Notes: generated from the letters alone by a model not told the origin. 59,887 bases of DNA from a virus (IMGVR_UViG_3300019884_000065); one strand, 5' to 3'. Positions 1 through 59,887 are shown, counted from the stretch's first letter. Made by a program: numbers and translations.

Positions 1-127
1 GCTGCCGCTGCCGGCCTGGCGAAGCTCACGCCGTTGTTGCGCGCCCAGACGCCTGCCTGTGTCACGGCCGTGCCTTCACTGATGCCGGAGGCCACGAGTG
101 CGTCGATGCACTCTTTGCGACTCATCA
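1..127. repeat. Terminal direct repeat, copy A (identical to 59761-59887); indicates a closed circle or terminal redundancy, unique length 59,760 bp
   Basis: Read directly: the first 127 bases (gctgccgctgccggcctggcg...ctttgcgactcatca) recur exactly as the last 127 bases. Confidence 0.95.
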
Positions 128-590
128 AGCCCTTGCGAATCTTGTCGAACTTTGAGTCCAGGTACTTGTGAACCTTGGCCACCGGGCCTTCAGGCTTTCG
201 GAATCCCTCGTCTTTGCTAGTTGTCATGATGTTCTCCTGTTGCGATGCCGAATCGTCAGCCTCGCCTTCAGTGGCTGGCTGGCTGCCACGGATGATCGCA
301 GTGAGTACCCGTAGCGCCGAGGGCGCAATCGGCATCATCTTGCGCGCCTCTGTTTTCATGTAGCTTGTGGCGAACTCAACTGGCGTGTACTCGAGGTCAA
401 CGCCGGCGACCTTCTTGAGTGGGGTATGGAAGAACTCGCGTTCGAACTTCTCGTTGTCGGCGACGCAGACAGCCAGCTGAGGGCCGTCGATTCCGACGTA
501 ATAGGTCTGCTTGGGACCGCGCTTGAAGACGCACACGATGTTGCGCTGGCGGTTGGACCGGATGGTCATCTCGTTCATTTCTGTAGTCAT
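1..590 (-). CDS. Hypothetical protein, 5' part of a junction-spanning gene (about 215 aa on the circle; continues 59760->59703)
   Basis: The reverse frame from ATG at 590-588 has no stop down to base 1 (checked codon by codon). It is the same frame as track ORF 59703..59885. It is absent from the track because it runs off the window edge. CAGAAAG leader at 600-606 and TATAAT at 619-624 lie upstream. An in-frame internal AGGAG-ATG sits at 227. Confidence 0.7.
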   Translation of the reverse strand, partial: MTTEMNEMTIRSNRQRNIVCVFKRGPKQTYYVGIDGPQLAVCVADNEKFEREFFHTPLKKVAGVDLEYTPVEFATSYMKTEARKMMPIAPSALRVLTAIIRGSQPATEGEADDSASQQENIMTTSKDEGFRKPEGPVAKVHKYLDSKFDKIRKGLMSRKECIDALVASGISEGTAVTQAGVWARNNGVSFARPAAA

Positions 591-14240: not shown

Positions 14241-14241
14241 T

Positions 14242-14481: not shown

Positions 14482-14512
14482 CTTGGCTGCCTTTCTGGGT
14501 TGGGATGTGGCG

Positions 14513-14540: not shown

Positions 14541-14560
14541 CTGTTGAGTGTAGTCGGATT

Positions 14561-14588: not shown

Positions 14589-14636
14589 GTACGGCCCGAC
14601 CTACACAGAACCCTACCCAGAAAGGTAAGAAAGAAT

Positions 14637-38758: not shown

Positions 38759-41700
38759 ATGGCAACCATCTTCCACCAAGGCGGATTTGGCACTACGTCT
38801 GCCAACGTAGTTAACACGCCGAGTTATCCCGTCACGTTCACGCCTGCGGCCGATACGCTGCTGGTCGTGTTCATTGGTGTGAGTGGCAACATAACGCCGA
38901 CGGAGAATGTGGTATCCAACATCGGTGGACTGACATTCACGAAGGTTCCGGGCTCAGACGTAACGAACACCGACGACTTGCGCAAATCGTCGATGTGGGT
39001 TGCTAATCAACTCACGACGGCAGTCTCAACGACAATCAGCTACGTCAGCAACATCGCTCACACATCGGGCTATGTTGAAGTATTCGGCATCAGCGGCATG
39101 AGCCGCGTGGGTCTGGATGCGGTGCGCCAGATTGCGACGGCGCAAACGCCAGCATTCAACACCGCGATCACGGCCACATTCCCAGGTCCGGCACTTACGA
39201 CGAACCCTCTTGCCATTGGCTTCAACGCTACGCAAGGTTCAGGCAATCCTACCGTTGCGAGTGCGGGCTGGGAAACAGTAGCGGGCGCTCTCTGGTCGAC
39301 CAACTCACCGGCTAGCCGCTACATTTCCTATTGGCGCAGCGGCGGCTTCTCCGCTGCTTCTGAAGTCATGCCCTCGTATGGATCACCGCGTAGTGCGGTG
39401 ATGATCGAGCTTGACGCGAGCCCGAGCGGTCCTGTCGGTGCGAACACGCCAAGCACTGCGGACACGCAAGTCTTCGAGCCGATGGTGCCGTTCGCGGCGG
39501 CGGACATCGTCACTAAGTTCAGCGCCGCACTGGCTGTGACGCCTGCATATGTGGTTGCGGGAGCCGCTGCAACATCTACGGTGACTCGTGCGCCGGTTCT
39601 GACGACAAGCGTTGCGGACCCAGCGGTCTTTGCGGCGACGCCGACAGCCGCCACGGCAACGGTGTCGAAGGTCTACACCAGCGTAGCATTGCCATTTGCT
39701 CACGCGACAACACTGATTGCGTCGAAGGATCATGTTGCGACTGGAGCAGCGCCATTTACTCATGTGCCAATGGCACCGGCCGATGCTACAGGAACTAAAG
39801 CAATCGGTATCGTTAACATTGAAAGCATAGCGCTGCCGGCAGTGTACCTGGCAACACCGTCACTAGCCACGAGCTCGCGCCAGGCGTACAGCATTGCAAC
39901 GCCGTACACCTACTCTGCAACGCCGGCTGCAACGGTATCGACCGCGGCACGAGTTTTCATCAGCAGTGCCGATGCTACTGTCTTTGCACCGCTAGTTCCG
40001 ACACCGACGAACGTAAACCTCACGAGTGCTGCGTCACCCGCGAGCTTTGCGCTTGTCCCATCACTGATTGATGTTTTCTTCAGTGGCGTCACAAGCCTAT
40101 ACTGCATCACCGACCCGACGATAGACAGTCCACCGGGTGCGCTGAGAGCAACAAATCTTCCGAGGGCGCTGAATAACGTTGCGCCCGGTAGTGCGATCGA
40201 AGGCACGTTGAGTTCCTTCTGGGGCGGCGTAGGCAACGTCGTCGACCGTGTTGTCACTTCACAAGCGACGACTGCCCAGCAGTCGCATTTCTTCGGACGA
40301 TTCACTTCTCGTCCGTTAGCTGCGCAAACAATTCACGCGCAGAATTGGAACTACGCTTTCGTTGTCGCCGCGGCTAACCTCGATGCGAACACATACTTCT
40401 GGCCAGTCATGTATGTGTGGCGTCCATCGACGCAACAAGTCGTTGGACATATTTTCGATGCGGCAGCGAATGCGAGTACCGCATGGCCTGCCACGATTAC
40501 GACTGCTCCGACGCGCAACATTCCAGGTGCACGGGTAGAAGCGCAAGAGGGTGACTTGCTTATCGTCGAATGCTGGGCGGTAAGCACATCATCAACGGGC
40601 ATAGCGCGGCTTCAGACATGGCGGATGACGGCGAACACATCGCGCATCATCTCGCAGTACAAGCTCCTCTACAAGCCGACGTCGATTCTGTACTTCAGAG
40701 CCGACGCGCCGCCTGTCTCACCTACGGCTGGCGAGAAGGCGACATATCTGCCATTGGCGCAGAATGTTAATTGGTCCGGTATTGCCAATGAAGGATTGCT
40801 CAGTGAGACGATGGTCCAGGCTCCGGTCGGACGGACCATCAGCACGATTGCCACAACGAATCCGCAGTCGCTCTATTACGGGAGGCACTCGAGTCTTCCA
40901 CTCGCCGCGCAAACAATTCCCGCGCAGAATTGGGGATGGGAAGTATCGTGCGGCACGACGCATGCCAATTGCCACATCTGGCATTGGCCGGTGTTGTACG
41001 TGTGGCGTCCATCGACGCAGCAAGTTGTTCAATACATTCTGAATGCATCGGCGGACACGGGCGCTGAGTGGCGCGTTGGCGTCGACCCATTGCTCAATCA
41101 ACAGTTCGCAGGTGAGTCGGCAACTGTTGAAGCTGGCGATATATTGGTCTGTGAAGTCTGGGGAGTTGCACGGCAATCGGCCGCCACGTCCTATGGCCCG
41201 ATGGTCTGGACGACCGCGATCAACTCTAGCCTCGTCTCGCCGTTCAAGCTGGAATACTACACCGGCGTAACAGCTATCACGTCGAATGCCGCGCCGGCTA
41301 CATACGAACTCGTTGAAGCAGATGCGACAGGTACTATCACGCTACCGACGCGGGCGTTGATTGAGACATTCCAAGAGAACTTCGAAGCGGGGCCAGACCC
41401 TGAGAAGTGGACTGTGGTCAATTGGGACGGCTCGGTCGCGTTCACAGGTGGCGTAGGCGTCTTCACCGTTACGAATGGAATAGCTGGCGCACAGGCTCTT
41501 GCTGAATCGAAGCCGTACTTTGATCTCAGAGGCAGTGGGGTATTTGCCAGGCTTGTCCAACCATTCCGGCAAGTCGGCGATCCGCCTGACAACGATTTCT
41601 CGTTCGGTGTTAAATCACCCGGCAACAACACAGTAGCGTTCTCGTTTAGCACTAGCGGGCGCCTACGCATAATAAAATTTACGAACGGTGTCTGGGGTGA

Positions 41701-44700
41701 AGTTTTTCTACTGACCACGTCCTATTTCGCAAACGTCGATGCTTATAGGCATCTGCGCATTAGTGAGCGTGCTGGGACAACATATTTCGAGTCGGCACCG
41801 AGTACCGCTGCTAACCCGCCGACTGAAGGCCAGTGGGTCGTCCGGCATTCTGTTGCTACAAGCACACTGCCAATCGACGTATCGTCGTGTCAGTTCGTCG
41901 CCTGGGTATACACGAACAGCGCGGGCACGGTTTCGCAGCCTGCACAGATCGATGGGCTCAACATTGCCACTGCCCCCATCACTGCGGTGGACGTACCGTC
42001 GGTTGCGGACCCGTCTTCCTTCGCGCTTGTGCCTACGGCAACGACAGCCAGGTTCGGCTACGCTAGCGTCGCCGGCCCGGTCCTGTACGCGGTTTCAACA
42101 CCTGGGACTACCAACCCCCTTACCCGTACAACGATCGCGTTGCCTGGCGCGTTTTCGCAAGCCTACGCCCCGAATACTGTGGACCTGGCTGGCTACACAA
42201 GCCAGGCCGTCCCGACCACGTACCTCTACAGCCCGACAGCTGCCACGGTATCGCTCGGACGGGTCTATGCTTCTGCTGCCCTGCCGCCGACCTATACGTT
42301 CAGCGCAGGGTTCGCCGGCGACACCGTCACGTCCTTCTCGATTGCGACTCCTGCAACATACAGTGCCGTATACGCACTGTCCACGACAAGCATAGTAAGA
42401 GCTGCTATTGCGGTGACATCCGCGGCCTTGCCAGCGGAATACACGCTCGCTCCTCAGGCTGCCACGGTATCGCTCGGACGAGTTTACACATCCGCGGCGC
42501 TGCCGACATCGTTCTTCTTCAACAACACGATTGAACCTGTTGTAGGGTTTGCTCGACTCAGCGCCGCGACTGCAAGCGCATACAGCCTGGGCGGTGTTGC
42601 CACGACAGCACGTTTCGCCAGGTTGTCTATTGCGATGCAGGCAGTCTACGATACGGCTGCGCTGCCTGCTACCGTATCGCTCGGACGGGTCTACACATCG
42701 GTTGCGTTGCCGACATCGTTCTTCCTAAACTGGACGATTGAAACTGGCTGGCAGTTCGCGCACGTTACTAGAGCGCTGCCCGCGACGTACACCGCGGCAT
42801 TCACGGCAGCGACAGACACGGCAATAGCGCAGATAGTCTCGATTGCGCTTGAAGCGGTATATAGCCATACGGCACCGAACACGGTTGACGTTATCACGTT
42901 GGCCGCGGCTGGTGCCGCACAGACCGCGACATACACCAGCATCGCGCATGAAGCGTATGCTTATGTATTGCGCCCATCGGTTGCGTTGCCTGTTGCCTTC
43001 GCCGGTGTTGTCGGGACACCTACGACGACTCGAGCTGCACGAGTTTCGTATGCACTGCCGACAGAGTTCAATACACAAGCATACCCGACGAATATTGCTG
43101 GTGCCGCGGTTGTACGGCATAGCAGCGTTGCTGAGCCCACGACGTTCAAGCTCAGTGGTGCGTGGGGCGGTAGTGCAGTCAACAGCAGCTCGATTGCCAC
43201 GGGTATTACGTATAGCCTGGCGCCGGCATTGGCTACAGCGACGCCGTCGAAGAACTCGATTGCTGTACCGGCGAACTATGCTCAGATTCCTTCGGACACA
43301 TGGTCTGGACGTGAAAGGATATCGGCAGCACTGCCTGCGACATACGCTATTGCCTCACCAGCAACGAACTCGTTTGCCTCAGTCAAGTATGTCTCTGCAG
43401 CACTGCCTACATCGTTCCTGCTCACCCCGACAGCGACGGGTGTGCGGCGCGGCTATGCGACGCCGGCAGTTTCAGCCAGGTACCTGCAAGAGGGTTGGAG
43501 TACAGCGGACTATGCAGACAGTGAAATCAAGCCACCGCTTGTCTACCCGGTGCCAGTCGTCCGGCCGGTGTTGTCCGACGCACAGTTCGATGCGTGGCTT
43601 AGCGATGAGCGTGCGCTTCGTGTTACGTTGATCGAGACGAAGTGCATTGACGCCGTGACGGGTGTGACAGAGCTTGTGTACTTCGCATCGCATGGTTTCG
43701 TCACGAAATATGAAGATGGTTCGCCAACATTCTATGCGCCGCTGATGCGCGGAGGTCTTGATTTCGCGCAGACACTCGATCTTGATTTAAGCGGCAACGA
43801 ATCGTATGGTGACATCGAGCTAGACAATTCAACAGGTGAGCTTGATTGGATGTTTGACCGCGTGTGGCTCTATCAAGAGTTCAAAGCCTACATCGGTGAT
43901 GCACAGTGGCCTCGTCGCGACTTCCGGCAAATCTTCGATGGCACGATTGAAGACATTGATAGCAGCCAGCGCGACACCGTGAACGTGCGGCTGCGCGATA
44001 AACTCTATCGCCTCGAGATGCCGCTGCACGAATATAAGATGCTAGGCGGCGGTCCCAATCTGGATCGGCTTGTTCCGTTTACGGTCGGCGAGTGCCACAA
44101 CATAACACCGTTACTGTCGAACGCGAACACGTTGACTTATGTATGGCATCCGAGAAGCGCGGAAAAGAATATCGAGGTGCGGGACAATGGCATCCCTGTG
44201 TCGTTCACTGAGGTTGTCGGCGGCTTCACGTTAGCCAAGCAGCCCTATGGCCGCATCACATGCAGCGTGCAAGGTGACAGAGTCACGACGGGCTATTTCA
44301 GCACAGGCTACACCAACACCGTTGGCAAACTCGTGTTGCACATGATGCTTGAGTGGGGTACGGAAGTCGCTCATCGTTTCACGATCAACGATATTGACAT
44401 CGACAACTTCACCGCGTTCGAGGCTGCCAACAAATATGCTGTCGGATTGTATTCAACAGAGCGGTTAACTGTGCGCGCTGCATGTCAGCAATTAGCCGCG
44501 TCCGTAGGTGCACGCCTTACGATGACAGCGCTCGGTAAAGCGCAACTCGTGAAGCTGCAACTGCCGCCGCCAACGACGCAGCCAAATCTATTGTTCAATG
44601 GTGACTTCTCGTCGGGCATGAGCGGCTGGTCGTATAGCGGCACGTCCGGTGGCATCGTGGAAGCAGCATCGGGCATCAACCTCAATGAGGTATGGTATCC

Positions 44701-45595
44701 ACCGGGCAAGTATGTATTCTGGATGCGTCAGGATGGATCGAAGAACAATCAGAACTCTTACATCGAGTATATCGGCAAGGCAATTCCTGTCGAGGCGAAC
44801 AAGCGATACACCATCAGCGCCTACACGGGCGCACACCGCTGCAAGGTTCAGATTGTCTTCTGGGAATACAGCGCGACGGGTGTACTGCTTCGTTCGTCTG
44901 TGCAAGTTCCATCGGCGTTCAACGAAGGAGACTTCCAAGGCGGCAATACGATGGCCGCTTTCAAGCACGTTTTCGATTATGCGACAACGGGTGCGGACAC
45001 AGCGTATATCCGGCCGCTGATGCGCAAGTGGGATACCTATGCTGGCGCGGTGCCGTTCGACTCTTATATGTTCGTCACGGACGTTGTGATCGAGAGTTCA
45101 GATAACGTGAACGCGTTGATCGAGGTAGGTGAGTCGGACATGGTGTCGGGTTCTCTGCACATTGCGGACCGTTTGCCCATTGTGCCAGGTGCACGCCTGG
45201 GCTACTGCAAGAATTGGACAGTGCAAGAGGACACTGCGCAGGGTGTGCCAGAAGATCACAAGGCAATGTATGCGCGAGAGTGGCTGAGCGTTCTTGTCAC
45301 TGAGCCAGCGCTCCGCGACAAGTATGAGGTGTGGGGTGAGCCAGAGCAGGAAAACTGTTTGCTGCTTGAAAGTGCAAGTGCCACGACAGAATGTAGTCGT
45401 CGTGTGAACTTGCGCTCGACGCAGCGTCACATCTATGAATACATTGGCTTTGCGAACCTCATGTTCACGCCAGTAGGCGCGCCCATGAAGCTAACTCACC
45501 GGCGTTTCAATTTGTCCGGCGGCAAGATCGGACAAGTTGTTTCGGTCGCTGTAAACTGGCAAACGTCCCAGGTCACAATCAGGGTTCTAATCTAA
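38759..45595 (+). CDS. Giant multidomain tail/fibre protein (2278 aa)
   Basis: A single stop-free ORF. It contains A/T/P/S/V-rich periodic repeats, a tandem ~190-aa domain duplication, a ConA/LamG-like segment, a conserved tail-protein-like core, and a CBM4_9-like segment (NLLFNGDFSSGMSGWSYSG). Confidence 0.85.
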   Translation: MATIFHQGGFGTTSANVVNTPSYPVTFTPAADTLLVVFIGVSGNITPTENVVSNIGGLTFTKVPGSDVTNTDDLRKSSMWVANQLTTAVSTTISYVSNIAHTSGYVEVFGISGMSRVGLDAVRQIATAQTPAFNTAITATFPGPALTTNPLAIGFNATQGSGNPTVASAGWETVAGALWSTNSPASRYISYWRSGGFSAASEVMPSYGSPRSAVMIELDASPSGPVGANTPSTADTQVFEPMVPFAAADIVTKFSAALAVTPAYVVAGAAATSTVTRAPVLTTSVADPAVFAATPTAATATVSKVYTSVALPFAHATTLIASKDHVATGAAPFTHVPMAPADATGTKAIGIVNIESIALPAVYLATPSLATSSRQAYSIATPYTYSATPAATVSTAARVFISSADATVFAPLVPTPTNVNLTSAASPASFALVPSLIDVFFSGVTSLYCITDPTIDSPPGALRATNLPRALNNVAPGSAIEGTLSSFWGGVGNVVDRVVTSQATTAQQSHFFGRFTSRPLAAQTIHAQNWNYAFVVAAANLDANTYFWPVMYVWRPSTQQVVGHIFDAAANASTAWPATITTAPTRNIPGARVEAQEGDLLIVECWAVSTSSTGIARLQTWRMTANTSRIISQYKLLYKPTSILYFRADAPPVSPTAGEKATYLPLAQNVNWSGIANEGLLSETMVQAPVGRTISTIATTNPQSLYYGRHSSLPLAAQTIPAQNWGWEVSCGTTHANCHIWHWPVLYVWRPSTQQVVQYILNASADTGAEWRVGVDPLLNQQFAGESATVEAGDILVCEVWGVARQSAATSYGPMVWTTAINSSLVSPFKLEYYTGVTAITSNAAPATYELVEADATGTITLPTRALIETFQENFEAGPDPEKWTVVNWDGSVAFTGGVGVFTVTNGIAGAQALAESKPYFDLRGSGVFARLVQPFRQVGDPPDNDFSFGVKSPGNNTVAFSFSTSGRLRIIKFTNGVWGEVFLLTTSYFANVDAYRHLRISERAGTTYFESAPSTAANPPTEGQWVVRHSVATSTLPIDVSSCQFVAWVYTNSAGTVSQPAQIDGLNIATAPITAVDVPSVADPSSFALVPTATTARFGYASVAGPVLYAVSTPGTTNPLTRTTIALPGAFSQAYAPNTVDLAGYTSQAVPTTYLYSPTAATVSLGRVYASAALPPTYTFSAGFAGDTVTSFSIATPATYSAVYALSTTSIVRAAIAVTSAALPAEYTLAPQAATVSLGRVYTSAALPTSFFFNNTIEPVVGFARLSAATASAYSLGGVATTARFARLSIAMQAVYDTAALPATVSLGRVYTSVALPTSFFLNWTIETGWQFAHVTRALPATYTAAFTAATDTAIAQIVSIALEAVYSHTAPNTVDVITLAAAGAAQTATYTSIAHEAYAYVLRPSVALPVAFAGVVGTPTTTRAARVSYALPTEFNTQAYPTNIAGAAVVRHSSVAEPTTFKLSGAWGGSAVNSSSIATGITYSLAPALATATPSKNSIAVPANYAQIPSDTWSGRERISAALPATYAIASPATNSFASVKYVSAALPTSFLLTPTATGVRRGYATPAVSARYLQEGWSTADYADSEIKPPLVYPVPVVRPVLSDAQFDAWLSDERALRVTLIETKCIDAVTGVTELVYFASHGFVTKYEDGSPTFYAPLMRGGLDFAQTLDLDLSGNESYGDIELDNSTGELDWMFDRVWLYQEFKAYIGDAQWPRRDFRQIFDGTIEDIDSSQRDTVNVRLRDKLYRLEMPLHEYKMLGGGPNLDRLVPFTVGECHNITPLLSNANTLTYVWHPRSAEKNIEVRDNGIPVSFTEVVGGFTLAKQPYGRITCSVQGDRVTTGYFSTGYTNTVGKLVLHMMLEWGTEVAHRFTINDIDIDNFTAFEAANKYAVGLYSTERLTVRAACQQLAASVGARLTMTALGKAQLVKLQLPPPTTQPNLLFNGDFSSGMSGWSYSGTSGGIVEAASGINLNEVWYPPGKYVFWMRQDGSKNNQNSYIEYIGKAIPVEANKRYTISAYTGAHRCKVQIVFWEYSATGVLLRSSVQVPSAFNEGDFQGGNTMAAFKHVFDYATTGADTAYIRPLMRKWDTYAGAVPFDSYMFVTDVVIESSDNVNALIEVGESDMVSGSLHIADRLPIVPGARLGYCKNWTVQEDTAQGVPEDHKAMYAREWLSVLVTEPALRDKYEVWGEPEQENCLLLESASATTECSRRVNLRSTQRHIYEYIGFANLMFTPVGAPMKLTHRRFNLSGGKIGQVVSVAVNWQTSQVTIRVLI
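40414..41019 (+). repeat. Intragenic domain duplication in the giant tail gene
   Basis: gtgtggcgtccatcgacgca occurs at 40414-40433 and at 41000-41019. The encoded segments ...PLAAQTI.AQNW...YVWRPSTQQVV... align over about 190 aa. Confidence 0.8.
42242..42750 (+). repeat. Three intragenic direct repeats (about 210-220 bp period) in the giant tail gene
   Basis: The core ccgtatcgctcggacg recurs at 42242-, 42461- and 42671-. The last two copies extend about 80 bp, encoding ATVSLGRVYTS.ALPTSFF.N.TIE. Confidence 0.8.
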
Positions 45596-51263: not shown

Positions 51264-51473
51264 ATGAAGATCGAAGTCAGCGAAGGTTCCAGCGGCGTAT
51301 GGTCCTGGCGTTTCAAGAGCGACAACGGCGTCACGATTGCCGAGGGTACGAAGACCTTCGAATCGAAGGGCGATGCACAGAAGGCTATTGCATCTTTCGG
51401 TGATGCAGTGGGCGTGAAAGCGAAGGACGTTTCATTCGTTCCACTCATCCCGGAGAAAGAAGAGGGGGAGTGA
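51264..51473 (+). CDS. DUF1508 (YegP-like) domain protein (69 aa)
   Basis: WSWRFKSDNGVTIAEGTKTFESKGDAQKAIASF matches the YegP/DUF1508 repeat pattern. AGGAG lies upstream. Confidence 0.6.
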   Translation: MKIEVSEGSSGVWSWRFKSDNGVTIAEGTKTFESKGDAQKAIASFGDAVGVKAKDVSFVPLIPEKEEGE

Positions 51474-51942
51474 GCTGGACCGTGCCTGGCAGTCTTTCAA
51501 TAAGGGCTAGGGGTAGGGTACCACCCATCCGCTGACCGCAGTGCCAGGCAGCTGCCTGGCGTAGCCTGGCACTACTGGCGACCGAGAGGGAGGCCATGTC
51601 GGCCGGGGACATCCCCCGGAGGTCCACCAGCCAGGTCGCCGATTGATTGCCGATCAAGCACCAGCACAACCCGCCAGCCCACACTCTGCGCGAAGCATAG
51701 ATGATCTGGGACCGTCGCATACCGTGCTGAATCCCAAGCACCTGTGCGGTGTCGCCCGGTGCAGTGTCGCTGAACTTCAACTCGATGCCACCTTCAACAC
51801 CGTCGATGCAGTAGTTGACGTCGGGTGTCCCGTCGCCAACTACATTCTCGATGCGTTCAAGATGGAAGCGTAGCTTCAGTGCTTGACAGCTCTTGGTGAT
51901 GTTGGGACGAATGCGCTCCGCCCAGAAGCCGACTTCATCCAT
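51445..51942 (-). CDS. VRR-NUC / PD-(D/E)xK-like nuclease (165 aa)
   Basis: GDGTPDVNYCIDGVEGGIELKF fits the PD...(D/E)xK layout. It is the last gene of the minus-strand arm, and its 3' end overlaps the convergent gene by 29 nt. Confidence 0.5.
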   Translation of the reverse strand: MDEVGFWAERIRPNITKSCQALKLRFHLERIENVVGDGTPDVNYCIDGVEGGIELKFSDTAPGDTAQVLGIQHGMRRSQIIYASRRVWAGGLCWCLIGNQSATWLVDLRGMSPADMASLSVASSARLRQAAAWHCGQRMGGTLPLALIERLPGTVQLTPPLLSPG

Positions 51943-52252
51943 TTGGCTTTGCGTGACGATCGAGGAAGAACATTTGCGCTAGGCTAGGACGCTCCAGCTT
52001 CGGAGTGAAGCCCTCGAGCTTCATAACGAAGCGCAATGGTAGGTTTGTCTCCAGCGCCCAATAGTCTTTGTCGTTGATCTTCATTCTGCAGACCAATGCT
52101 TCTATAGCGTTGTACTTGCTGCCATCCGGCGTCTCAAGATATCCCTTCATCTTGAGCGGTACGCGTTCGCCGATCTCATGGCTCACGTGTCGTGGGACGT
52201 CTATTGTTCCTAGCAGGCGATCTGTCTCAGTTGACCAGAGCTCGTATATCAT
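51935..52252 (-). CDS. Hypothetical protein (105 aa)
   Basis: Track ORF 51935..52267 trimmed to the ATG at 52252, which forms an ATGA overlap with the polymerase stop. Confidence 0.55.
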   Translation of the reverse strand: MIYELWSTETDRLLGTIDVPRHVSHEIGERVPLKMKGYLETPDGSKYNAIEALVCRMKINDKDYWALETNLPLRFVMKLEGFTPKLERPSLAQMFFLDRHAKPNG

Positions 52253-54288
52253 GCGCAGGCTCCCCAATTCGGTCCGCGTGTTTGATCAGCACGGATTGGG
52301 ACATCCAGTGTCATACAGTTCTCCATAATGTTCCTCACTTCGTTGATTGCTTCCTGATGTTGCTTACTTGCGTTTGCACTATGCCCGAGCTCGTCATGAC
52401 AGGTGAGCTTCGGAACTCCAACTACCTTTGTCGCACCACTACGGTGAATGTCCCGCATGGCTGTCTTCATCAAGTCCGCGGCACTACCTTGCAGTAGACC
52501 GTTCAATGCTTTGTGAGTGTAGGCACGGGCAACGCGCGGACCCCATGTCTCGATCGCGTCATCATAGCGCATGGCCTTGCCGTTGTACCCTTCACTGCCC
52601 CAGCGCGGTTCGAATAGATCGAAGCGGACACGTCGACCTCCAAATGTCTTGATATAGCCACGCTCAGCCGCGCGCTTCTGGGCAACGTTGTATGTGGCAC
52701 GGACGAATGGGACAGCGTTGTGATACTGCTGGATGATGTACTCGGACTCCTCACGCGAGAGTCCCAGGTAAGAGATCAGTGTGTCGATGCCCATGCCATA
52801 CACGAGCCCGAAGTTGATGTTCTTCACAGGCTTACGGAAGCTCTTGCGCTGTACCTTTGTGCTGATGTCCCAGCCAGCAAATGGTGCCACGAGGTCCAGA
52901 GTCATCTCATGGAAGTCAGTGGTCGGGTCATTGCGATAACGCTCTCGGACCGACTCCCCAGACGGCCCGCGAGCGTAATGAGCCAAGAATCTATACTCGA
53001 TCTGCGACCAGTCGTGGCGGACCCACTGCTCACCTTCTTCTGGTATGAACAACGCCCTGAGCTTCGGACCCCAATACTCATCGCGTGCTGGAATGTTCTG
53101 TAGGTTCGGAAGGGATGATGAGAAGCGGCCAGACACGGTGCCGTTCTCGTCACCTTTGAGCTGATGGAATAGCGCGTACAACCGACCGTTGACATGCTTG
53201 TCCAGAACATAGGAGCGAACAAACGTGTTGCGGTACTTCTGGAGTTGCCTGCGGTGTCGAACGAGTTCACCAGCCGGATGCTTAACTCGCTCGAGCCACT
53301 CTTTAACGAACGATGGCTGACCCGTAGCTGTCTTCGGATAGGCAACACCGGCTGCATCAAAGAGTGCGGCGAGGTCGCTCTTGCTGATGTCCTTGTCCGG
53401 GTCCAGGTTCGTTAGCATGCCACCCGACACGGTCTTCAGCCGCATGTCGGCCTCGAGGATGCCAGCGGTGAGCTCGTCGTCCAGGCGCTTGGCGTACTCG
53501 ATGTCTACGCGCACGCCAGCCTGGCGCATCTGGACCATCAACGGGATGAGTTCAGTTTCTAAATCGAACAAGCCCATCATGAGCTGTTGCTCTATGATGA
53601 TTCTTTGCTTGCTCCAGATGCGCAGGGGCAGGTCGACGTCGCCTTCTGCGTATGGTCCCACTAGGCAGGGAGGCGCGGCCCAGATGTGTGCCCGATAGTG
53701 ATCGCCGTCACCGTATGCACGTTCGATCCATGCAGCGAGCTCGTTCTTTACCTTCGTCTCGCCGAGGTACGACTTGCTCAGGGCGTCCAAGTTATACGTA
53801 AATCTATTAGAGTCTATTAGCGCTTCTGCGTGTTGTACGTCGATGAACGGTCCGCTCACGGGGACGCCCTCGCTCCACAAGGCGTCTACGTCATAGGACA
53901 GATTCGCGCCGACCTTTGCCTGGCCCTCGGTGCAGAGGTTGTCGCGCGCCCAGGCCAGCACATGGCCAGGGTCAAGGTTCTGTTCTGGTGCTATCTTGTG
54001 CCGCATGGGGAAGTACCAGCGGCCACCTTCCATCGTACCGACGCTGATGCCTACGATGTGAGCACCTTCTTCACCTTCTCGACGGAAGCCTGGACCTTTC
54101 TCAACAAGGGCTCGGTCCTTTGTCTCAGTATCCAGGCCCAATATCTTAGCCTCACATAGCCTCGGAAAAGCGCCCGGCGCCACCCATCCTGTATCGGGAA
54201 TAGGTGGCGTCGGCCGATCATAGTTGATCCGCTTTTCCTTGACCTGGATTTCTTCCCAGAAGAAGCCAACGCTGTCGTCTCGTTGCAT
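52249..54288 (-). CDS. Family-A DNA polymerase with a 3'-5' exonuclease domain (679 aa)
   Basis: Exo I-like LGLDTET, motif A HDWSQIEYRFLAH, motif B RKPVKNINFGLVYGMG and motif C LTCHDELG. No 5'-3' exonuclease domain is present. Confidence 0.9.
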   Translation of the reverse strand: MQRDDSVGFFWEEIQVKEKRINYDRPTPPIPDTGWVAPGAFPRLCEAKILGLDTETKDRALVEKGPGFRREGEEGAHIVGISVGTMEGGRWYFPMRHKIAPEQNLDPGHVLAWARDNLCTEGQAKVGANLSYDVDALWSEGVPVSGPFIDVQHAEALIDSNRFTYNLDALSKSYLGETKVKNELAAWIERAYGDGDHYRAHIWAAPPCLVGPYAEGDVDLPLRIWSKQRIIIEQQLMMGLFDLETELIPLMVQMRQAGVRVDIEYAKRLDDELTAGILEADMRLKTVSGGMLTNLDPDKDISKSDLAALFDAAGVAYPKTATGQPSFVKEWLERVKHPAGELVRHRRQLQKYRNTFVRSYVLDKHVNGRLYALFHQLKGDENGTVSGRFSSSLPNLQNIPARDEYWGPKLRALFIPEEGEQWVRHDWSQIEYRFLAHYARGPSGESVRERYRNDPTTDFHEMTLDLVAPFAGWDISTKVQRKSFRKPVKNINFGLVYGMGIDTLISYLGLSREESEYIIQQYHNAVPFVRATYNVAQKRAAERGYIKTFGGRRVRFDLFEPRWGSEGYNGKAMRYDDAIETWGPRVARAYTHKALNGLLQGSAADLMKTAMRDIHRSGATKVVGVPKLTCHDELGHSANASKQHQEAINEVRNIMENCMTLDVPIRADQTRGPNWGACA

Positions 54289-54519
54289 TTATTTCTTCAG
54301 TATGTTCGGCGGTAGTGTCCCGGTGAGTACATGCATCTTCGCCGGGTCTGCCACTGCTACGTGATGCACCGGCTCGCGCTGCTGTTCGGCAGTAATGGCG
54401 TTACTCTGCACAATCGTTTTGGCCTGTGCCATGAGCTCATCTAGCCGCCTATTACGCTCCTGTATCTCGCGGCATAGTTGAATCATCTCTTCGTAAATCG
54501 CTGCAATTGTCTCGCTCAT
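54289..54519 (-). CDS. Hypothetical protein (76 aa)
   Basis: Track ORF 54289..54588 trimmed to the ATG at 54519, which forms an ATGA overlap with the upstream stop. Confidence 0.5.
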   Translation of the reverse strand: MSETIAAIYEEMIQLCREIQERNRRLDELMAQAKTIVQSNAITAEQQREPVHHVAVADPAKMHVLTGTLPPNILKK

Positions 54520-55475
54520 CGCTGTCCTCCGAATAGCCCGATCACTTCGCCAGCTTTGAAGGCGTGTGTATCGGGTTTGATATGCCACTGAATAGCCGTG
54601 GCGTGCTCGAAGACCAATGCCGCCATGCGCGCATTGAGCTTCCCTGTAGCCGGCAACTCAAGGTCGTCGGCTTCGAATGTTTCATCTAGTAGCTTGAGCC
54701 CGCCCTCGCGGAACTCCACTACGGGTATGCGCATGTCCGCCAACTTCACCGCAGCATCGAGCACGCCAGCCAGTGCGCTGTGCGGTGTTGCCCAATTGAC
54801 CTCCTCTAATCCGTTCACGTAGCCATCAACAACGTGCGTTGGCCACTGTGCGGCAATCAGAAGTGTCTTCACCCAGCAGTCGTCATCGAAGTAGAATGTG
54901 ACGCTGTCCTCTGTGACACCCATATCGATCGGTTCTCCCTTCGTCGTTACTGCACCGAAGCAGGCAGAGGGAACAATCACCGTTGCTGGCAACACCGTCG
55001 GGAATGGTACGCGGCACAGAATCACGTTGTTCGTGGCATAGGCGAACCCGTTGTGAAGACAGATGCCGTTGGCCCATATCTTCGAGGAGTCGGTGGCGAC
55101 GAAGGGCTCTAGTTGTTCAATGAGGGCAGATACGCCAGAGGCCGTGTGGCTGGTTTTCGGAGTGGGGGCAGTACGTGGGTACTCCCCACTGTCTGCCAGA
55201 CCGATACGGGACCGCCTGGCGTGGCCCACGACCATTAAACTCGCGTCCGTGACCCGGAAGGTGGGGTCGCTATCGCAGACGCCCCATGCACTCGCCAGCT
55301 TGGCCGCGTCCACTGTGCAGAGTGGCATGTTGCATGGCACGTCGACTGTATAACGGCCGTTGTTCACCTGTGCACGGCGATCACCGTTCTCGTCGTCGTA
55401 GACGTGTAGCTTTTGAAAGGCTGGCAGTAGTGTGCCTATGTGCGCACATAGGTATTTGAGAGTATCGAGGTCCAT
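54516..55475 (-). CDS. Putative sliding-clamp (DnaN-like) protein (319 aa)
   Basis: Trimmed to the ATG at 55475 (TAATG overlap with dpdA). ...LHNGFAYATNNVILCRVPF... recalls the clamp ATDGHRL segment. It sits next to the polymerase. The call is tentative. Confidence 0.4.
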   Translation of the reverse strand: MDLDTLKYLCAHIGTLLPAFQKLHVYDDENGDRRAQVNNGRYTVDVPCNMPLCTVDAAKLASAWGVCDSDPTFRVTDASLMVVGHARRSRIGLADSGEYPRTAPTPKTSHTASGVSALIEQLEPFVATDSSKIWANGICLHNGFAYATNNVILCRVPFPTVLPATVIVPSACFGAVTTKGEPIDMGVTEDSVTFYFDDDCWVKTLLIAAQWPTHVVDGYVNGLEEVNWATPHSALAGVLDAAVKLADMRIPVVEFREGGLKLLDETFEADDLELPATGKLNARMAALVFEHATAIQWHIKPDTHAFKAGEVIGLFGGQR

Positions 55476-56413
55476 TAGAAGAACGTGACTGCTGCACGCA
55501 TATACGTGGGCCGGCCAATCTTTTTCATGTAGTGTTTGAAGTAGCGGAGGTTCCACGCATCGCGCATACCGTAGTTCGTCGCCAGGTCTTCCGGCTTGAA
55601 GCCTTCTGCGTGTAGGAGATCGGTGACGTATTTCTGCGTCACGCTGTCCAGGCTCCAGAAGCTCTTGTCTTCGGTCTTCACATTGGGGCTCTTCTCAGAG
55701 AATGAGATGGCCCGCCGCTTGCCACCGATGTCCATGATGCAACTACCGAACATCGAGATCATGACCCATGACGTTGAGTCTACTGAATACCACGGGTAGC
55801 GTTCCATCAACTCGAACGTTGTCAACCCGAAGCCGTGGACCTTGACCCTGGCGCTGCCGTCCGGGTTCGCCAGGTACTTGTCGAAGATATGGTCCAGCCA
55901 CTCAATCAAGTACGGTGTTGCCTCCGGTACCATACCGCCGATGAAGATGTAGTCGTAGCCTTCGTCCAGGTACCGCACAAGCCACTCATCTCGATCGCGG
56001 GCGTGATGCACAGGGCAGACCTGTATCGGCAACTTCAACGACTCCAGGTATTTCTGATTCGCGTAGCTCTCCGCCTCGAGGCCTTTGCCAATGGCGTCGA
56101 CGTTCGAAGCTATCTCAATAAAGTCCTGTGCCGCAATCAGATAACGGGCGTATTTGTCGAGGTCCACTTTAATACCCAGCGTGAACATCGAGAACGCGCC
56201 CGAGTCCATGAATATCTTGTGGCCGTTGCGGCGGATCACTTCATCGCATTGCCCTTTGCCGATGTAGTGATAGCTCTCGAGGTGGAACGGATACGACTCG
56301 GCGGCGGCAGCAATCTGCATCGGATTGCCGCTTTGAGAATCCGCGCGATGACCGTTGTAGCGAGCTGCCGCATAGATCTTAATGCAGTCATTGAAGTCCT
56401 CGGTGTGGTTCAT
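55475..56413 (-). CDS. dpdA: DpdA-type 7-deazaguanine DNA transglycosylase (TGT-fold, 312 aa)
   Basis: Trimmed to the ATG at 56413 (ATGA overlap). It has the IFMDSGAFSMF motif and TIM-barrel-like periodicity. It lies in one operon with folE, queD, queE and queC. Confidence 0.7.
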   Translation of the reverse strand: MNHTEDFNDCIKIYAAARYNGHRADSQSGNPMQIAAAAESYPFHLESYHYIGKGQCDEVIRRNGHKIFMDSGAFSMFTLGIKVDLDKYARYLIAAQDFIEIASNVDAIGKGLEAESYANQKYLESLKLPIQVCPVHHARDRDEWLVRYLDEGYDYIFIGGMVPEATPYLIEWLDHIFDKYLANPDGSARVKVHGFGLTTFELMERYPWYSVDSTSWVMISMFGSCIMDIGGKRRAISFSEKSPNVKTEDKSFWSLDSVTQKYVTDLLHAEGFKPEDLATNYGMRDAWNLRYFKHYMKKIGRPTYMRAAVTFF

Positions 56414-56604
56414 GGGCACTCGGTAAAGATATATCGGGTGAAGGACATGCCGCATTTGGTACAGTGGCTTGGCTCTTCATTGAGGCGTCCATCTTCGTCT
56501 TTCACTTGAAGATAAGCCCACTCGTGCTTGCATCCAGGAGGATAAGCAGGAGTGACATGAATAACAACGCCCGGAGGATCATCCACATCTTTGTCGTCTT
56601 TCAT
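56410..56604 (-). CDS. Small Cys/His zinc-ribbon-like protein (64 aa), coupled to dpdA
   Basis: Track ORF. GCKHEW...HCTKCG is present, and its stop overlaps the dpdA ATG (ATGA). Confidence 0.5.
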   Translation of the reverse strand: MKDDKDVDDPPGVVIHVTPAYPPGCKHEWAYLQVKDEDGRLNEEPSHCTKCGMSFTRYIFTECP

Positions 56605-56610
56605 TTTGGT

Positions 56611-56949
56611 TCACTTGATCTTGTTTACCACATCATTAGATTGCTGTTCGACAGTGTCTAAAGCTGTCATCATTTCTGCTGCTTTTATAAATACTCCAAG
56701 AGAAGTTTCGATCAAAACAACGCTACCGTCTTCTCTGTCCGCTCGGATGATGACAGCGGGTGTGCCGCCTGGTTCCCGGATGCCACCTGACAATCGACCG
56801 ATAGAGAGTTCAGTTGTGTCCACGCCCATCCACTCCACATCATCGCGAAGTGGGTAGGCACCGTCTGCACGTTGCGGCTGAGTTTCGTCATGTAGGTCGG
56901 CCCATTGACCATGAGTCAAATCGAAAACGATTTTCACTGTACTGGTCAT
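56611..56949 (-). CDS. Hypothetical protein (112 aa) inside the deazaguanine operon
   Basis: Track ORF 56611..57000 trimmed to the ATG at 56949. GGAGG (56955-59 reverse complement) lies 5 nt upstream. The start is 2 nt after the folE stop. Confidence 0.55.
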   Translation of the reverse strand: MTSTVKIVFDLTHGQWADLHDETQPQRADGAYPLRDDVEWMGVDTTELSIGRLSGGIREPGGTPAVIIRADREDGSVVLIETSLGVFIKAAEMMTALDTVEQQSNDVVNKIK

Positions 56950-56950
56950 G

Positions 56951-57559
56951 CTAACCTCCGTTGCAGGCGGCGAGGAATTCGGCACGAGCTTTAGCGTCAT
57001 CTTTGATAGCTCCCTTCAAGGCGTTTGTGATTGTGTAGTGACCCTGTTGGCACACACCGCGCGACTCCATACACATATGCCGTGCGCGTACCTGTACGCC
57101 GACTCCAATGGGTTTGAGGTTGCGGTCGATCGCCTCGACAATCTGTGCCGTGATTCGCTCTTGCACCTGCAAGCGTCGGGCGAAGGCATCGACAACGCGA
57201 TTGATCTTCGACAGCCCAACGATGCGACCGTTCGGAATATAGGCCACTGTAGCAGTGCCGAAGAATGGTGCGAGATGATGCTCACAGTGCGAATAGAGTG
57301 GGATGTTCTTCACCACAATCATCTCATCAACACCGTCGGCTCCGTCCATGAACGTCTTGAGCAGACTATCGACATCCACTCGGTAGCCCGCGGCCCAATA
57401 GTCGCGCCAGGCAGCAGCGACGCGTGCCGGTGTTTCCTCAATTCCCTCGCGTAGTGCGTCGCTATGTGCTAGGCTTTCGATGTGGCGTAGCAGTTCTTCA
57501 ACTGCAATTGGCATCGGGTCACGGGCGCGCGGGTAATGGCCGTCGTCGTATAGGCTCAT
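56951..57559 (-). CDS. folE: GTP cyclohydrolase I
   Basis: It has ...VKNIPLYSHCEHHLAPFFGTATVAYIPNGRIVGLSKINRVVDAFARRLQVQERIT..., the classic FolE core. Confidence 0.9.
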   Translation of the reverse strand: MSLYDDGHYPRARDPMPIAVEELLRHIESLAHSDALREGIEETPARVAAAWRDYWAAGYRVDVDSLLKTFMDGADGVDEMIVVKNIPLYSHCEHHLAPFFGTATVAYIPNGRIVGLSKINRVVDAFARRLQVQERITAQIVEAIDRNLKPIGVGVQVRARHMCMESRGVCQQGHYTITNALKGAIKDDAKARAEFLAACNGG

Positions 57560-58398
57560 TCAACACCTCCGAACAGATGCGTCTGACAGGTCATGCGCCT
57601 GTTGTAATCCATGGCCAGCCGGGCGGCGTGACGGTAGTTGCGCGCTGTTTCTTTCTGGTCGATCAACGTATCGTCCCATACGGTAGCAATCTCACCTGGC
57701 ATAGGACTGCGCTTGTAGACAGCCATGCCGCTGATGTAGATGCTGTTCTCAGCTGCGAGTGCATCCTCGGGTATGTCGTGATACGGTGACACACTGTCGG
57801 CCGTCACGACATACTTGAGGTCCAGTACATCAGCGCTATTGAACCAGAACTGCGGGATGAGCGGATAGGTGGAGCGTGAGTGCGGCACTTTGGGCGAGCA
57901 CACGAAGCGCATGTGCCCTTGGCGACGTGCGGTGTCGATCATATCTTCACGTAGCAGCAGACCATTGGTTTCGAGCTGCCAGGTCGGCCGGCTTAACATC
58001 CCGAAGTGTGGGTCGACCTGAGTGATGACCTGCTTGATGTGTTGCCACTGCAGCAACGGTTCACCGCCAGTGAGCACAATGAGACTGCACTTGTGCGCAT
58101 GTAGCTCGTGCATGATGGCGTCGTGTGCCTCGACCACTCTGCCATCGGCCAGGTGAAACTTCGTGTCGCACCAGGGGCAGTCCTGCTTCAGACCGATGTT
58201 GCAGCCAGCCAATCGTATGAATAACGCTGGCACGCCGGCGTATGGGCCTTCGCCTTGGATTGTGTAGAACATACTGTGGATGAGCAATTGCCCATCACGC
58301 AGCATGTCGTAGGAGTTCTTGGTGGCGTTGATGTCCGCGTTGATGACGGGGAACTTACGCTTAGTGGGAGGATCAAGAAGATGCATGAGCTTTGCCAT
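57556..58398 (-). CDS. queE: 7-carboxy-7-deazaguanine synthase (radical SAM); start uncertain (58398, 58386 or 58305)
   Basis: It has FYTIQGEGPYAGVPALFIRLAGCNIGLKQDCPWCDTKF (C-x7-C-x2-C as read) and ...LTGGEPLLQ. Confidence 0.85.
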   Translation of the reverse strand: MAKLMHLLDPPTKRKFPVINADINATKNSYDMLRDGQLLIHSMFYTIQGEGPYAGVPALFIRLAGCNIGLKQDCPWCDTKFHLADGRVVEAHDAIMHELHAHKCSLIVLTGGEPLLQWQHIKQVITQVDPHFGMLSRPTWQLETNGLLLREDMIDTARRQGHMRFVCSPKVPHSRSTYPLIPQFWFNSADVLDLKYVVTADSVSPYHDIPEDALAAENSIYISGMAVYKRSPMPGEIATVWDDTLIDQKETARNYRHAARLAMDYNRRMTCQTHLFGGVE

Positions 58399-58846
58399 TT
58401 GGATTGATATACCTCCCTGAATTCTTGTCGTTCTCTCTTACCTCAACGCTAATGACCCAACACCGCCCCATCGACTTTGCGATGAGATGGTTGTTGACCC
58501 ACTCGCAGACGAACTGCGCTGTGTCTTCCATGCCGACGCCGTAGGGCAGCGTGCGAATGGTAGCGGCACCCGCGACCTCGAGCTGGCGGAACTGCGGCAT
58601 CAACGGGTCATCTTCACACAGAAGCAGTGTGTGATCGAAGAACTCATCGAGGAACGACTTCACCCATCCCAGCTGACCGAAGTCGACTACGAAGCCGCAG
58701 TCGTCACGATCGCTTGCCCCGAAGACGAAGTGGAAGCTGCGCGAGTACCCGTGCACGCGTGCGCAGACACCCTTGTGCCGGTGTTGCCGATGTGCGCAGG
58801 GATAGTTCCAATAGGCTTTCGTGCTTTGATAGGTTGATTCGCTCAT
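58373..58846 (-). CDS. queD: 6-carboxy-5,6,7,8-tetrahydropterin synthase
   Basis: Trimmed to the ATG at 58846 (ATGA overlap with queC). It has CARVHGYSRSFHFVF and VVDFGQLGWVKSFLDEFFDHTLLL. Confidence 0.85.
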   Translation of the reverse strand: MSESTYQSTKAYWNYPCAHRQHRHKGVCARVHGYSRSFHFVFGASDRDDCGFVVDFGQLGWVKSFLDEFFDHTLLLCEDDPLMPQFRQLEVAGAATIRTLPYGVGMEDTAQFVCEWVNNHLIAKSMGRCWVISVEVRENDKNSGRYINPNGKAHASS

Positions 58847-59706
58847 GGTCTTTCCTTGGCGGTGCCAGGTGGGGGTTTGCGGTGCCAATTTGCCGGGTCG
58901 CGTTCGAAGTCTCCAATCTCACCGAGGGTGATGCCACTCGCCATTGCCGCAGGCCACCGCTCTTTAATCACCCGCCAACGTTCGACCAGTGGATCAGGTA
59001 CCCCAGCCTGCCTGAAGCCTTCCGCGCGCAGCACACACGCATGGCACCGCCCGCATGGGGGCGTTTCGCCGGCATAGCAGGTATGGCTCATCCCCATGAC
59101 CCGCTCCCAGCCTGGGAAGGTACTGGCGAGCTTCACCGTCTCTGCCTTCGTTAGGCTGATGAGAGGGGTAAGCACGCGCAGCTGTGGATGGTCGGCCTTG
59201 ATGTAGTCAGCACGGTTCATCCCGAGTGCCTCCTGCATGGCAAAGGTCGTGGCTGAGATGAACTGGTCTGTGCAGTCGGGATAGTTGGCGTTGTCCATTG
59301 CGCACACGCCGGTGACGAGGTCATAGCAGTCGAGTGACAGCCCGTAGTTCGCTGCCAACACGAGGAACAGCATGTTGCGCAGCGGCACGAACGTGAGTTC
59401 AACACGACTCTGAATCGTGTCTTCCATTTGCCGAAAATCTTTGTATGTCTCGAGTGGCTCGTGCGGGTTGATGAGCGGGCTGCGACCGCGCAGGGTGCCA
59501 GCCACGTTCATGATACGATGCGAGGCAACACCGACCATTGAGGCGATGCAGCTTGCGGCATCAATCTCGACGCGATGCTTCTGCCCGTAGTCGAACGTGA
59601 GGGCGTGAACCTTCTCGTAGTGTTCCTTGGCCCATAGCAGGCAGGTTGTTGAGTCCTGCCCGCCCGATAGGATCACGAGGCATTTTGTGCGATTGAGTTC
59701 GTTCAC
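58843..59706 (-). CDS. queC: 7-cyano-7-deazaguanine (preQ0) synthase with a C-terminal extension (287 aa, GTG start)
   Basis: It has the PP-loop LSGGQDSTTC, the zinc site CYAGETPPCGRCHACVLR, and about 45 extra C-terminal residues. A GTGA overlap links it to the upstream gene. Confidence 0.9.
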   Translation of the reverse strand: MNELNRTKCLVILSGGQDSTTCLLWAKEHYEKVHALTFDYGQKHRVEIDAASCIASMVGVASHRIMNVAGTLRGRSPLINPHEPLETYKDFRQMEDTIQSRVELTFVPLRNMLFLVLAANYGLSLDCYDLVTGVCAMDNANYPDCTDQFISATTFAMQEALGMNRADYIKADHPQLRVLTPLISLTKAETVKLASTFPGWERVMGMSHTCYAGETPPCGRCHACVLRAEGFRQAGVPDPLVERWRVIKERWPAAMASGITLGEIGDFERDPANWHRKPPPGTAKERP

Positions 59707-59887
59707 GCTGCCGCCTCCGGTGTTGCCTTCTTGGCTTCCTTGGCTGCTGCCTTCTTTTCGGCTGCCGCTGCCGGCCTGGCGAAGCTCACGCCGTTGTTGC
59801 GCGCCCAGACGCCTGCCTGTGTCACGGCCGTGCCTTCACTGATGCCGGAGGCCACGAGTGCGTCGATGCACTCTTTGCGACTCATCA
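59703..59887 (-). CDS. 3' end of the junction-spanning gene (see 1..590)
   Basis: Track ORF 59703..59885 is in frame with, and partly identical to, the reverse ORF at 1..590. Its annotated Met is internal to the longer ORF. Confidence 0.7.
   Translation of the reverse strand, partial: MSRKECIDALVASGISEGTAVTQAGVWARNNGVSFARPAAAAEKKAAAKEAKKATPEAAA
59761..59887. repeat. Terminal direct repeat, copy B (identical to 1-127)
   Basis: Same 127-base string as the window start. Confidence 0.95.

Follow-up and report, generated by a model that had tools for sequence, protein, structure and literature searches.

Introduction

Replacement of guanine in phage DNA by 7-deazaguanine derivatives is encoded by the coliphages 9g (Nonagvirus) and CAjan (Seuratvirus) and by the Pseudomonas phage iggy (Iggyvirus, Queuovirinae). 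In phages possessing transglycosylases of the DpdA1 type, 0.1–30% of the deoxyguanosine (dG) is replaced (PMC10516641). The functions of FolE, QueD and QueE of 9g were validated, and its DpdA alone inserts preQ0 (7-cyano-7-deazaguanine) into DNA in E. coli (PMC6884629). Furthermore, 9g possesses a Gat-QueC fusion protein of 472 amino acids (aa) giving 2'-deoxyarchaeosine (dG+), and CAjan, which contains the deoxynucleoside of preQ0 (dPreQ0), additionally carries a yhhQ-like transporter gene. In iggy, QueC features an extension of 140 residues, yet dPreQ0 was the only product measured, amounting to ~16.5% of G and occurring in a GA motif (PMC10484667). The bacterial Dpd system, in turn, is a restriction-modification system ending in the deoxynucleoside of 7-amido-7-deazaguanine (dADG).

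In this study, the uncultured virus sequence IMGVR_UViG_3300019884_000065, a stretch of 59,887 nucleotides (nt) referred to as the window, was analyzed with regard to a minus-strand gene cluster at positions 55475–59706, in which the preQ0 synthesis genes queC, queD, queE and folE are combined with dpdA, encoding a predicted DNA guanine transglycosylase. We consider it probable that this cluster constitutes a phage module for 7-deazaguanine modification of DNA, of the kind present in 9g, CAjan and iggy. The prediction that a preQ0 pathway together with DpdA leads to 7-deazaguanine in the phage DNA originated from a preliminary description of the sequence and gained support from every test run. 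Since such systems have been described in detail in related phages, the window provides a new example rather than a new kind. New points are the closure of the contig on itself, a conserved gene ahead of queC, and the existence of close relatives in which neither the cluster nor this upstream gene nor the adjoining clamp gene is present at the locus.

Organization of the gene cluster

Seven tightly packed open reading frames (ORFs) occupy the minus strand between positions 55475 and 59706, and profile searches assign five of them:

queC, 58843..59706, minus strand: preQ0 (7-cyano-7-deazaguanine) synthase, 287 aa
queD, 58373..58846, minus strand: 6-carboxytetrahydropterin synthase, 157 aa
queE, 57556..58398, minus strand: 7-carboxy-7-deazaguanine synthase, radical S-adenosylmethionine (SAM) enzyme, 280 aa
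folE, 56951..57559, minus strand: GTP cyclohydrolase I, 202 aa
ORF112, 56611..56949, minus strand: small ORF, 112 aa, no family match
ORF64, 56410..56604, minus strand: small Cys/His-containing ORF, no family match
dpdA, 55475..56413, minus strand: DpdA1-type DNA guanine transglycosylase (predicted), 312 aa

Profile searches and direct reading of the sequence confirmed that these genes represent one minus-strand block continuing into a clamp-like gene and the family-A DNA polymerase gene (PolA). The start and stop codons overlap as GTGA between the conserved upstream gene, termed UP, and queC, and as ATGA at the junctions queC/queD, queE/folE, ORF64/dpdA and clamp/next ORF. The clamp start overlaps the dpdA stop in the sequence TAATG, and queD and queE overlap by 26 nt. 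The earlier statement that almost every junction is a start/stop overlap is valid for most of the block but not for the surroundings of ORF112, which is separated from folE by 1 nt and from ORF64 by 6 nt. Moreover, this ORF had mechanically been called with 129 aa; the ATG at position 56949, located behind a GGAGG sequence, is the likelier start and results in 112 aa. A terminator scan identified no terminator-like site on the minus strand between the cluster genes, and scans for promoter-like and terminator-like sites returned both at chance level. Judging from the gene packing, the cluster may reasonably be expected to form a single transcription unit.

Like iggy, the window encodes a QueC with a C-terminal extension lacking a recognisable domain, and its cluster lies beside clamp and polymerase genes. 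However, the order queC-queD-queE-folE-[two ORFs]-dpdA differs from queE-queC-queD-folE-dpdA in iggy, so that the window matches the Queuovirinae (PMC10484667) in the placement beside clamp and PolA and not in gene order. The order queC-queD-queE-folE is common to the window and its close relatives, and more distant relatives show queC-queE-queD-folE-dpdA. The QueC tails of ~50 residues (window) and ~140 residues (iggy) are unrelated. The phage backbone also differs from iggy and, with PolA less than 49% identical to that of any cultured phage, appears to be without a close cultured relative. A megablast search with the 4.2-kb region gave no match among 50,697 phage records, and hence the window does not represent a known phage.

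Taken protein by protein, the nearest cultured matches originate from Sphingomonas phage vB_StuS_MMDA13 (MMDA13), the Rhizobium RHEph/RHph phages and Burkholderia phage BcepGomr, whose DpdA proteins are 38–43% identical to that of the window and whose clusters adjoin a clamp homologue as well; megablast detected no nucleotide similarity between these phages and the window. MMDA13 possesses a QueF-like gene (gp33) which is missing in the window, and BcepGomr uses a family-B polymerase, whereas that of the window belongs to family A.

Enzymes of the preQ0 pathway

The proposed completeness of the preQ0 pathway was borne out, since strong family matches were obtained for all four enzymes. QueC matched the Pfam family QueC (E = 1.6e-56) and reached 179.3 bits for TIGR00364 (cutoff 150.3 bits). 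Its PP-loop SGGQDS and its zinc motif C-x8-C-x2-C-x2-C (C210/C218/C221/C224) are invariant among the relatives. The protein is plain compared to the Gat-QueC fusion of 9g, no GATase or Gat domain being matched in Pfam searches of its 287 residues. The C-terminal tail extends ~50 aa past the Pfam domain and varies from ~8 to 70 residues across relatives with no conserved sequence or domain. QueC is thus regarded as canonical on the basis of its sequence features, and the presumed extension as a non-conserved tail.

FolE matched GTP_cyclohydroI of Pfam (E = 2.1e-63) and TIGR00063 (201.6 bits, cutoff 181.6 bits), and is 60% identical to FolE of MMDA13. QueD was identified by the Pfam family PTPS (E = 2.7e-18, 66.5 bits, cutoff 22.4) and the QueD-like phrog_2389 (E = 2.2e-33); its score for the equivalog TIGR03367 is below the cutoff. 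QueE matched the QueE-like phrog_2076 (E = 8e-35) and slightly exceeded the cutoff of Pfam Radical_SAM (30.6 versus 29.5 bits). Furthermore, it aligns over its full length with the validated QueE of 9g.

Assignment of the transglycosylase

The 312-aa protein encoded downstream of ORF64 had been proposed to be a DpdA-like protein with the fold of tRNA-guanine transglycosylases (TGT). Profile search, tblastn, structure model and Foldseek search all returned matches in agreement with this assignment. The protein matched phrog_887 ('queuine tRNA-ribosyltransferase') with E = 7.8e-55, and tblastn revealed 37% identity to DpdA of 9g over 88% of the protein (E = 3e-47). In total, 192 cultured-phage records were matched at 36–43% identity, including 9g, BcepGomr, PaMx25 and Rhizobium, Vibrio and Alteromonas phages; 9g and related coliphages account for values of 36–37%, and CAjan itself is not among the matches listed. 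At E ≤ 1e-5, ~3,956 homologues were found in the protein collection, many of them encoded on contigs of 50–70 kb, and the start codon yielding 312 aa is supported by homologues.

The AlphaFold2 model of DpdA, computed from 29 homologues, reached a predicted local distance difference test (pLDDT) score of 90.2 and a predicted template-modeling (pTM) score of 0.87. Among viral models (BFVD), Foldseek retrieved phage 'queuine tRNA-ribosyltransferase' structures with template-modeling (TM) scores of 0.6–0.72 and E-values down to 1.5e-15. Most hits from the PDB were generic TIM barrels (tryptophan synthase alpha), and ArcTGT (1iq8) ranked second and showed the highest query TM score of 0.52; for the model, the PDB search alone is regarded as not decisive and the BFVD search as clearer. 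Comparison with PDB sequences, as single sequence and as profile, yielded only a weak match to bacterial DpdA (7ui4), which headed the profile hits (E = 0.11).

Within 25–29 relatives including 9g and BcepGomr, the residues D70 and F74 (DSGAF), D106, H137, the motifs GGMVPE and HGFG, and D212 (SVDS) are invariant. In order and spacing these motifs match Asp95, Phe99, Asp130, His181 and Asp256 of Salmonella DpdA, of which Asp95 and Asp256 are catalytically essential (PMC10164549); the correspondence was drawn from motifs and spacing, not from superposition. Likewise, the NCBIfam DpdA profile aligned DpdA residues 149–218, holding D212, to its positions 195–261, in a partial match with E = 1.4e-5 and 24 bits (equivalog cutoff 200 bits). 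The bacterial Dpd system of Salmonella Montevideo (PDB 7ui4) shares with the window the TIM-barrel superfamily, the three catalytic aspartates and preQ0 as substrate (PMC10164549). However, the window contains no DpdB ATPase partner, no DpdC and no restriction components, and its DpdA is shorter than the bacterial protein (312 versus 436 aa), insertion Ins8 being much reduced. Screening of the window ORFs against Pfam provided no DpdB-like or ParB-like match. Overall, sequence and model support the assignment of the protein to phage subfamily DpdA1, with a TGT-like TIM barrel and predicted DNA guanine transglycosylase activity.

A use of these genes for raising the supply of queuosine precursors for host tRNA, or action of the transglycosylase on tRNA, with the phage DNA left unmodified, is very improbable. 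Such a boost of host queuosine was discussed for phages carrying preQ0 genes without an obvious DpdA (PMC6884629). The window transglycosylase, however, falls into the phage DpdA group with 37% identity to the 9g protein and has no Pfam TGT match. DpdA of 9g modifies DNA and does not complement E. coli tgt (PMC6884629), and the window encodes no QueF to make preQ1, the substrate of bacterial TGT.

Under the DNA-modification reading, FolE, QueD, QueE and QueC would successively convert GTP to dihydroneopterin triphosphate (H2NTP), 6-carboxytetrahydropterin (CPH4), 7-carboxy-7-deazaguanine (CDG), 7-amido-7-deazaguanine (ADG) and preQ0. The DpdA1-type transglycosylase would then act on the replicated, double-stranded phage DNA and put preQ0 in the place of guanine. 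This exchange is expected to follow a TGT-like double displacement, in which Asp212 would serve as nucleophile and Asp70 as general acid/base, while Asp106 would read the base edge. As outcome, a fraction of dG would be present as dPreQ0 at a short sequence motif, where it may blunt restriction enzymes and some CRISPR nucleases. Compared to the bacterial restriction-modification system, the module of the window would act in phage counter-defence.

Several observations weigh against this reading. The phage is uncultured, and some DpdA1 enzymes tested heterologously were inactive, e.g., DpdA1 of phiSM (PMC10516641). All five NCBIfam QueE equivalogs match the window QueE far below their cutoffs. 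Moreover, its radical-SAM cluster motif at residues 66–77, CNIGLKQDCPWC, reads Cx7CxxC in this clade and not Cx3CxxC; QueE of 9g, BcepGomr and MMDA13 carries CNLQCPxC, relative to which the window clade features an insertion of four residues. QueD residues 28–34 (CARVHGY) contain HGY where 9g has CxxxHGH, a variant common to QueD of BcepGomr and MMDA13. Like DpdA of 9g, the window DpdA and its relatives are also devoid of the zinc site CxCx2Cx22H present in bacterial DpdA and TGT. Together with the missing Pfam TGT match and the NCBIfam DpdA score below cutoff, the absence of the zinc site points to the phage DpdA1 type rather than to bacterial DpdA or TGT. Finally, UP, ORF112 and ORF64 have no assigned function, so that a further modification by an unrecognised enzyme is possible.

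The predicted modified base

The preliminary description reported no queF, no glutamine amidotransferase fusion on QueC and no arcS, and regarded dPreQ0 as the simplest product. At Pfam sensitivity, this was confirmed across the whole window: essentially every plausible ORF was free of matches to QueF, glutamine amidotransferase, ArcS/PUA, methyltransferase and formyltransferase families. The class of QueC points in the same direction. Identity to the window QueC amounts to 52% for MMDA13, 47% for Rhizobium phages, 44–46% for the Iggyvirus group (Pa-oumiga and PCCM_PaP002), 34% for Seuratvirus, 31% for Rosebush-like phages and 26% for QueC* of CP220, a proposed ADG synthase. By these values, the Iggyvirus-group proteins are the closest QueC sequences from a characterised lineage. 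As QueC appears canonical and iggy, the type phage of this group, contains dPreQ0 only, the best prediction for the window is that dPreQ0 takes the place of part of the dG at a specific motif.

The same module might also establish dADG as the dominant base, either by release of the amide from an extended QueC, as had been suggested, or by conversion of dPreQ0 in DNA through an unrecognised DpdC-like hydratase. This outcome could appeal to the QueC tail, which is absent from textbook QueC, to the QueC* homologue of Campylobacter phages, which is proposed to stop at ADG (PMC10516641), and to the trace dADG accompanying dPreQ0 in several phages (PMC8306585). However, the tail is neither conserved in length nor does it contain a conserved domain, the core of QueC scores above the equivalog cutoff, and the protein is far less similar to QueC* than to the Iggyvirus-group proteins. 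Moreover, iggy with its longer extension is strictly a dPreQ0 phage (PMC10484667), and phages with QueC* use DpdA3, not DpdA1. Consequently, dADG as main product is quite unlikely.

The conserved gene upstream of queC

The first 127 nt of the ~60-kb phage genome (positions 1–127) are identical to its last 127 nt (59761–59887) at 127 of 127 bases. The contig therefore closes on itself, as a circular or terminally redundant assembly with 59,760 bp of unique sequence, and the genes at the window start are located directly upstream of queC. The cluster does not begin at queC, as previously assumed, but is preceded by the 215-aa gene UP spanning the window ends:

UP, N-terminal 196 codons, 1..590, minus strand: continues across the window ends
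UP, C-terminal 60 codons, 59703..59887, minus strand: gene stops at 59703, with the GTGA overlap onto the queC start

The complete gene is composed of positions 1–590 joined to 59703–59760, and the small ORF at 59703–59885 corresponds to its C-terminus. UP is located directly ahead of queC in every cluster-bearing relative of the clade examined (L003, L004, L006, L008 and L013) and is absent from L009 and L016, two relatives without the cluster at this locus. It has no Pfam match, and only 33 matching clusters were found among 1.84 billion representatives. Its C-terminal domain (approximately residues 128–191) followed by a Lys/Ala-rich tail showed a remote hhalign match (probability 83%) to BcepGomr gp38, the gene of which is located upstream of BcepGomr queE, and the domain also occurs in larger unrelated proteins. 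Comparison of UP with 9g_00007 and MMDA13 gp37 by hhalign gave no convincing match. Given the two-domain appearance with the Lys/Ala-rich tail and the shared C-terminal domain, a role in DNA binding or regulation seems more likely for UP than an enzymatic one.

UP is also the main candidate for an enzyme, unrecognisable by sequence, that would take preQ0 on to dG+, dPreQ1 or a novel derivative. Its association with the cluster in the relatives examined and its position outside all known families fit this possibility, and DpdL, DpdM and DpdN, featuring unusual folds, were recognised only recently (PMC10516641). However, the Lys/Ala-rich tail and the shared C-terminal domain rather suggest a DNA-binding or regulatory role, ORF112 and ORF64 also occur without the cluster, and all three proteins are unlike the QueF-like protein of MMDA13. 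Further processing of preQ0 is therefore considered unlikely, and dPreQ0 is retained as predicted base.

There is a small but appreciable chance that the modification module also includes UP and the clamp-like gene as working components. UP could then be a DNA-binding factor targeting or regulating DpdA, or an enzyme converting preQ0 or dPreQ0 further, and the clamp could be a platform coupling DpdA to newly replicated DNA.

Clamp, polymerase and small ORFs

Downstream of dpdA, the following genes were identified:

clamp-like gene, 54516..55475, minus strand: sliding-clamp-like processivity factor, 319 aa
small ORF between clamp and PolA, 54289..54519, minus strand: 76 aa from the ATG overlapping the clamp stop
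PolA, 52249..54288, minus strand: family-A DNA polymerase, 679 aa

The clamp-like protein matched phrog_947 (E = 7e-28), and 247 phage records contain homologues carrying the annotation of a replicative clamp. PolA was identified by the Pfam family DNA_pol_A (E = 3.8e-59). The small ORF between both genes is kept only in the closest relatives (L013–L015). In the nearest cultured phages the clamp adjoins PolA, and the order dpdA, clamp, PolA was observed in 9g, MMDA13 and more distant metagenomic relatives. Placement of the cluster beside polymerase genes has been described as conserved (PMC10484667); the linkage to replication genes, initially highlighted as notable, therefore corresponds to the standard layout in 9g and related phages. 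A role of the clamp as specific partner of DpdA was weakened, since Salmonella, Xanthomonas and Rhodobacter phage groups are among the clamp matches and not among the DpdA matches. Based on its homologues, the clamp is most plausibly interpreted as a replication protein.

The two ORFs without assignment do lie inside the presumed operon, as originally noted, but are probably not parts of the pathway. Neither ORF112 nor ORF64 matched Pfam, PHROG or NCBIfam, and among 5.8 billion proteins only ten and nine homologues were found, respectively. Their GC contents at third codon positions are 0.48 (ORF112) and 0.46 (ORF64), versus 0.6–0.74 in the neighbouring genes. L009, a syntenic relative, encodes a homologue of ORF112 (62% identity), and the 10 kb fetched around its PolA gene are devoid of the que/dpdA cluster. 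Homologues of ORF64 occur in L016, which likewise has no cluster in a 10-kb range around PolA, and in L011, there in an unrelated context of replication genes. Cluster-bearing relatives differ in the content of the slot separating folE from dpdA: it contains no gene in L013, ORF64 only in L004, ORF112 and another ORF in L006, a MazG-like protein in L008 (6576–6917) and an unrelated phrog_8593 protein in L003 (9286–9870). Since homologues occur in relatives lacking the cluster and the slot is variable, ORF112 and ORF64 do not appear to be pathway components and are interpreted as unrelated passenger genes. The possibility of ORF112 being a hidden QueF-like T-fold protein was rejected, considering its lack of similarity to MMDA13 gp33, the missing Pfam QueF match and the homologue in a relative without the cluster; the AlphaFold2 model of ORF112 (pLDDT 59) was unusable.

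Furthermore, a contig of 2,799 bp from Logan SRR7026342 (L012) encodes an ORF112 with 100% identity, flanked by genes of the sizes of queE and folE. This identity indicates that the same or a nearly identical phage was sampled independently.

Relatives with and without the module

Eight metagenomic relatives share the cluster. The two relatives lacking it, L009 (JGI 3300044248, a contig of 59,163 bp) and L016 (IMGVR_UViG_3300020020_000050), were compared with window positions 51445–59887 and 1–3549. Their PolA proteins are 83–84% identical to that of the window, L009 showing 84% for PolA and 78% for DUF932. In both, a homologue of ORF88 (window 655–921) is directly followed by a homologue of ORF112 or ORF64 and then by PolA, and the fetched stretches contain no UP, queC, queD, queE, folE, dpdA or clamp. 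L003 and L006 have the same PolA distance, yet the block is present. Presence and absence at equal PolA distance indicate that the module behaves as a gain/loss cassette in this lineage, the insertion or deletion spanning UP, queC, queD, queE, folE, dpdA and the clamp.

Additional genes were observed in the same array of two relatives. L003 encodes a Lar-like restriction-alleviation protein downstream of dpdA (11423–11722, Pfam E = 5.8e-7), and L008 a weakly nucleoside 2-deoxyribosyltransferase-like ORF between clamp and PolA (8886–9287). Both are other candidates for counter-defence or nucleotide-metabolism genes.

Genomic surroundings

The early arm upstream of the cluster (1–14646, minus strand) encodes Pam3 gp32/gp33/gp34-like proteins, DUF932, DUF2786/DUF7168 and DUF3567 proteins and an SNF2-type helicase. 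It also encodes a superinfection-immunity protein (Imm_superinfect, E = 4e-18), and no integrase or repressor match was obtained in this arm. The tail region includes a single ORF of 2,278 aa (38759–45595, plus strand) and an adjoining ORF of 1,247 aa (34493–38236), and a Cadherin_5-like match was located somewhere among the structural ORFs. Scanning of the whole window against Rfam yielded no family at gathering score and no preQ1 riboswitch ahead of the que genes, and a scan for tRNA genes was negative as well. Host inference from GTDB genomes was uninformative, the only hits being mis-binned contigs of metagenome-assembled genomes with at most 47% identity.

Implications for phage biology

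The understanding of the preQ0/DpdA pathway itself is unchanged by this case. Should UP and the clamp indeed belong to the module, the final base or the coupling to replication would differ from the paradigm of 9g, CAjan and iggy. With the window, the phages predicted to carry 7-deazaguanine DNA gain a further lineage, which is uncultured and apparently abundant. Genomes of this kind withstand digestion by many restriction enzymes, and their G positions can upset nanopore base-calling. Moreover, sibling phages with and without the module at this locus form natural pairs in which the environmental benefit of the modification could be studied.

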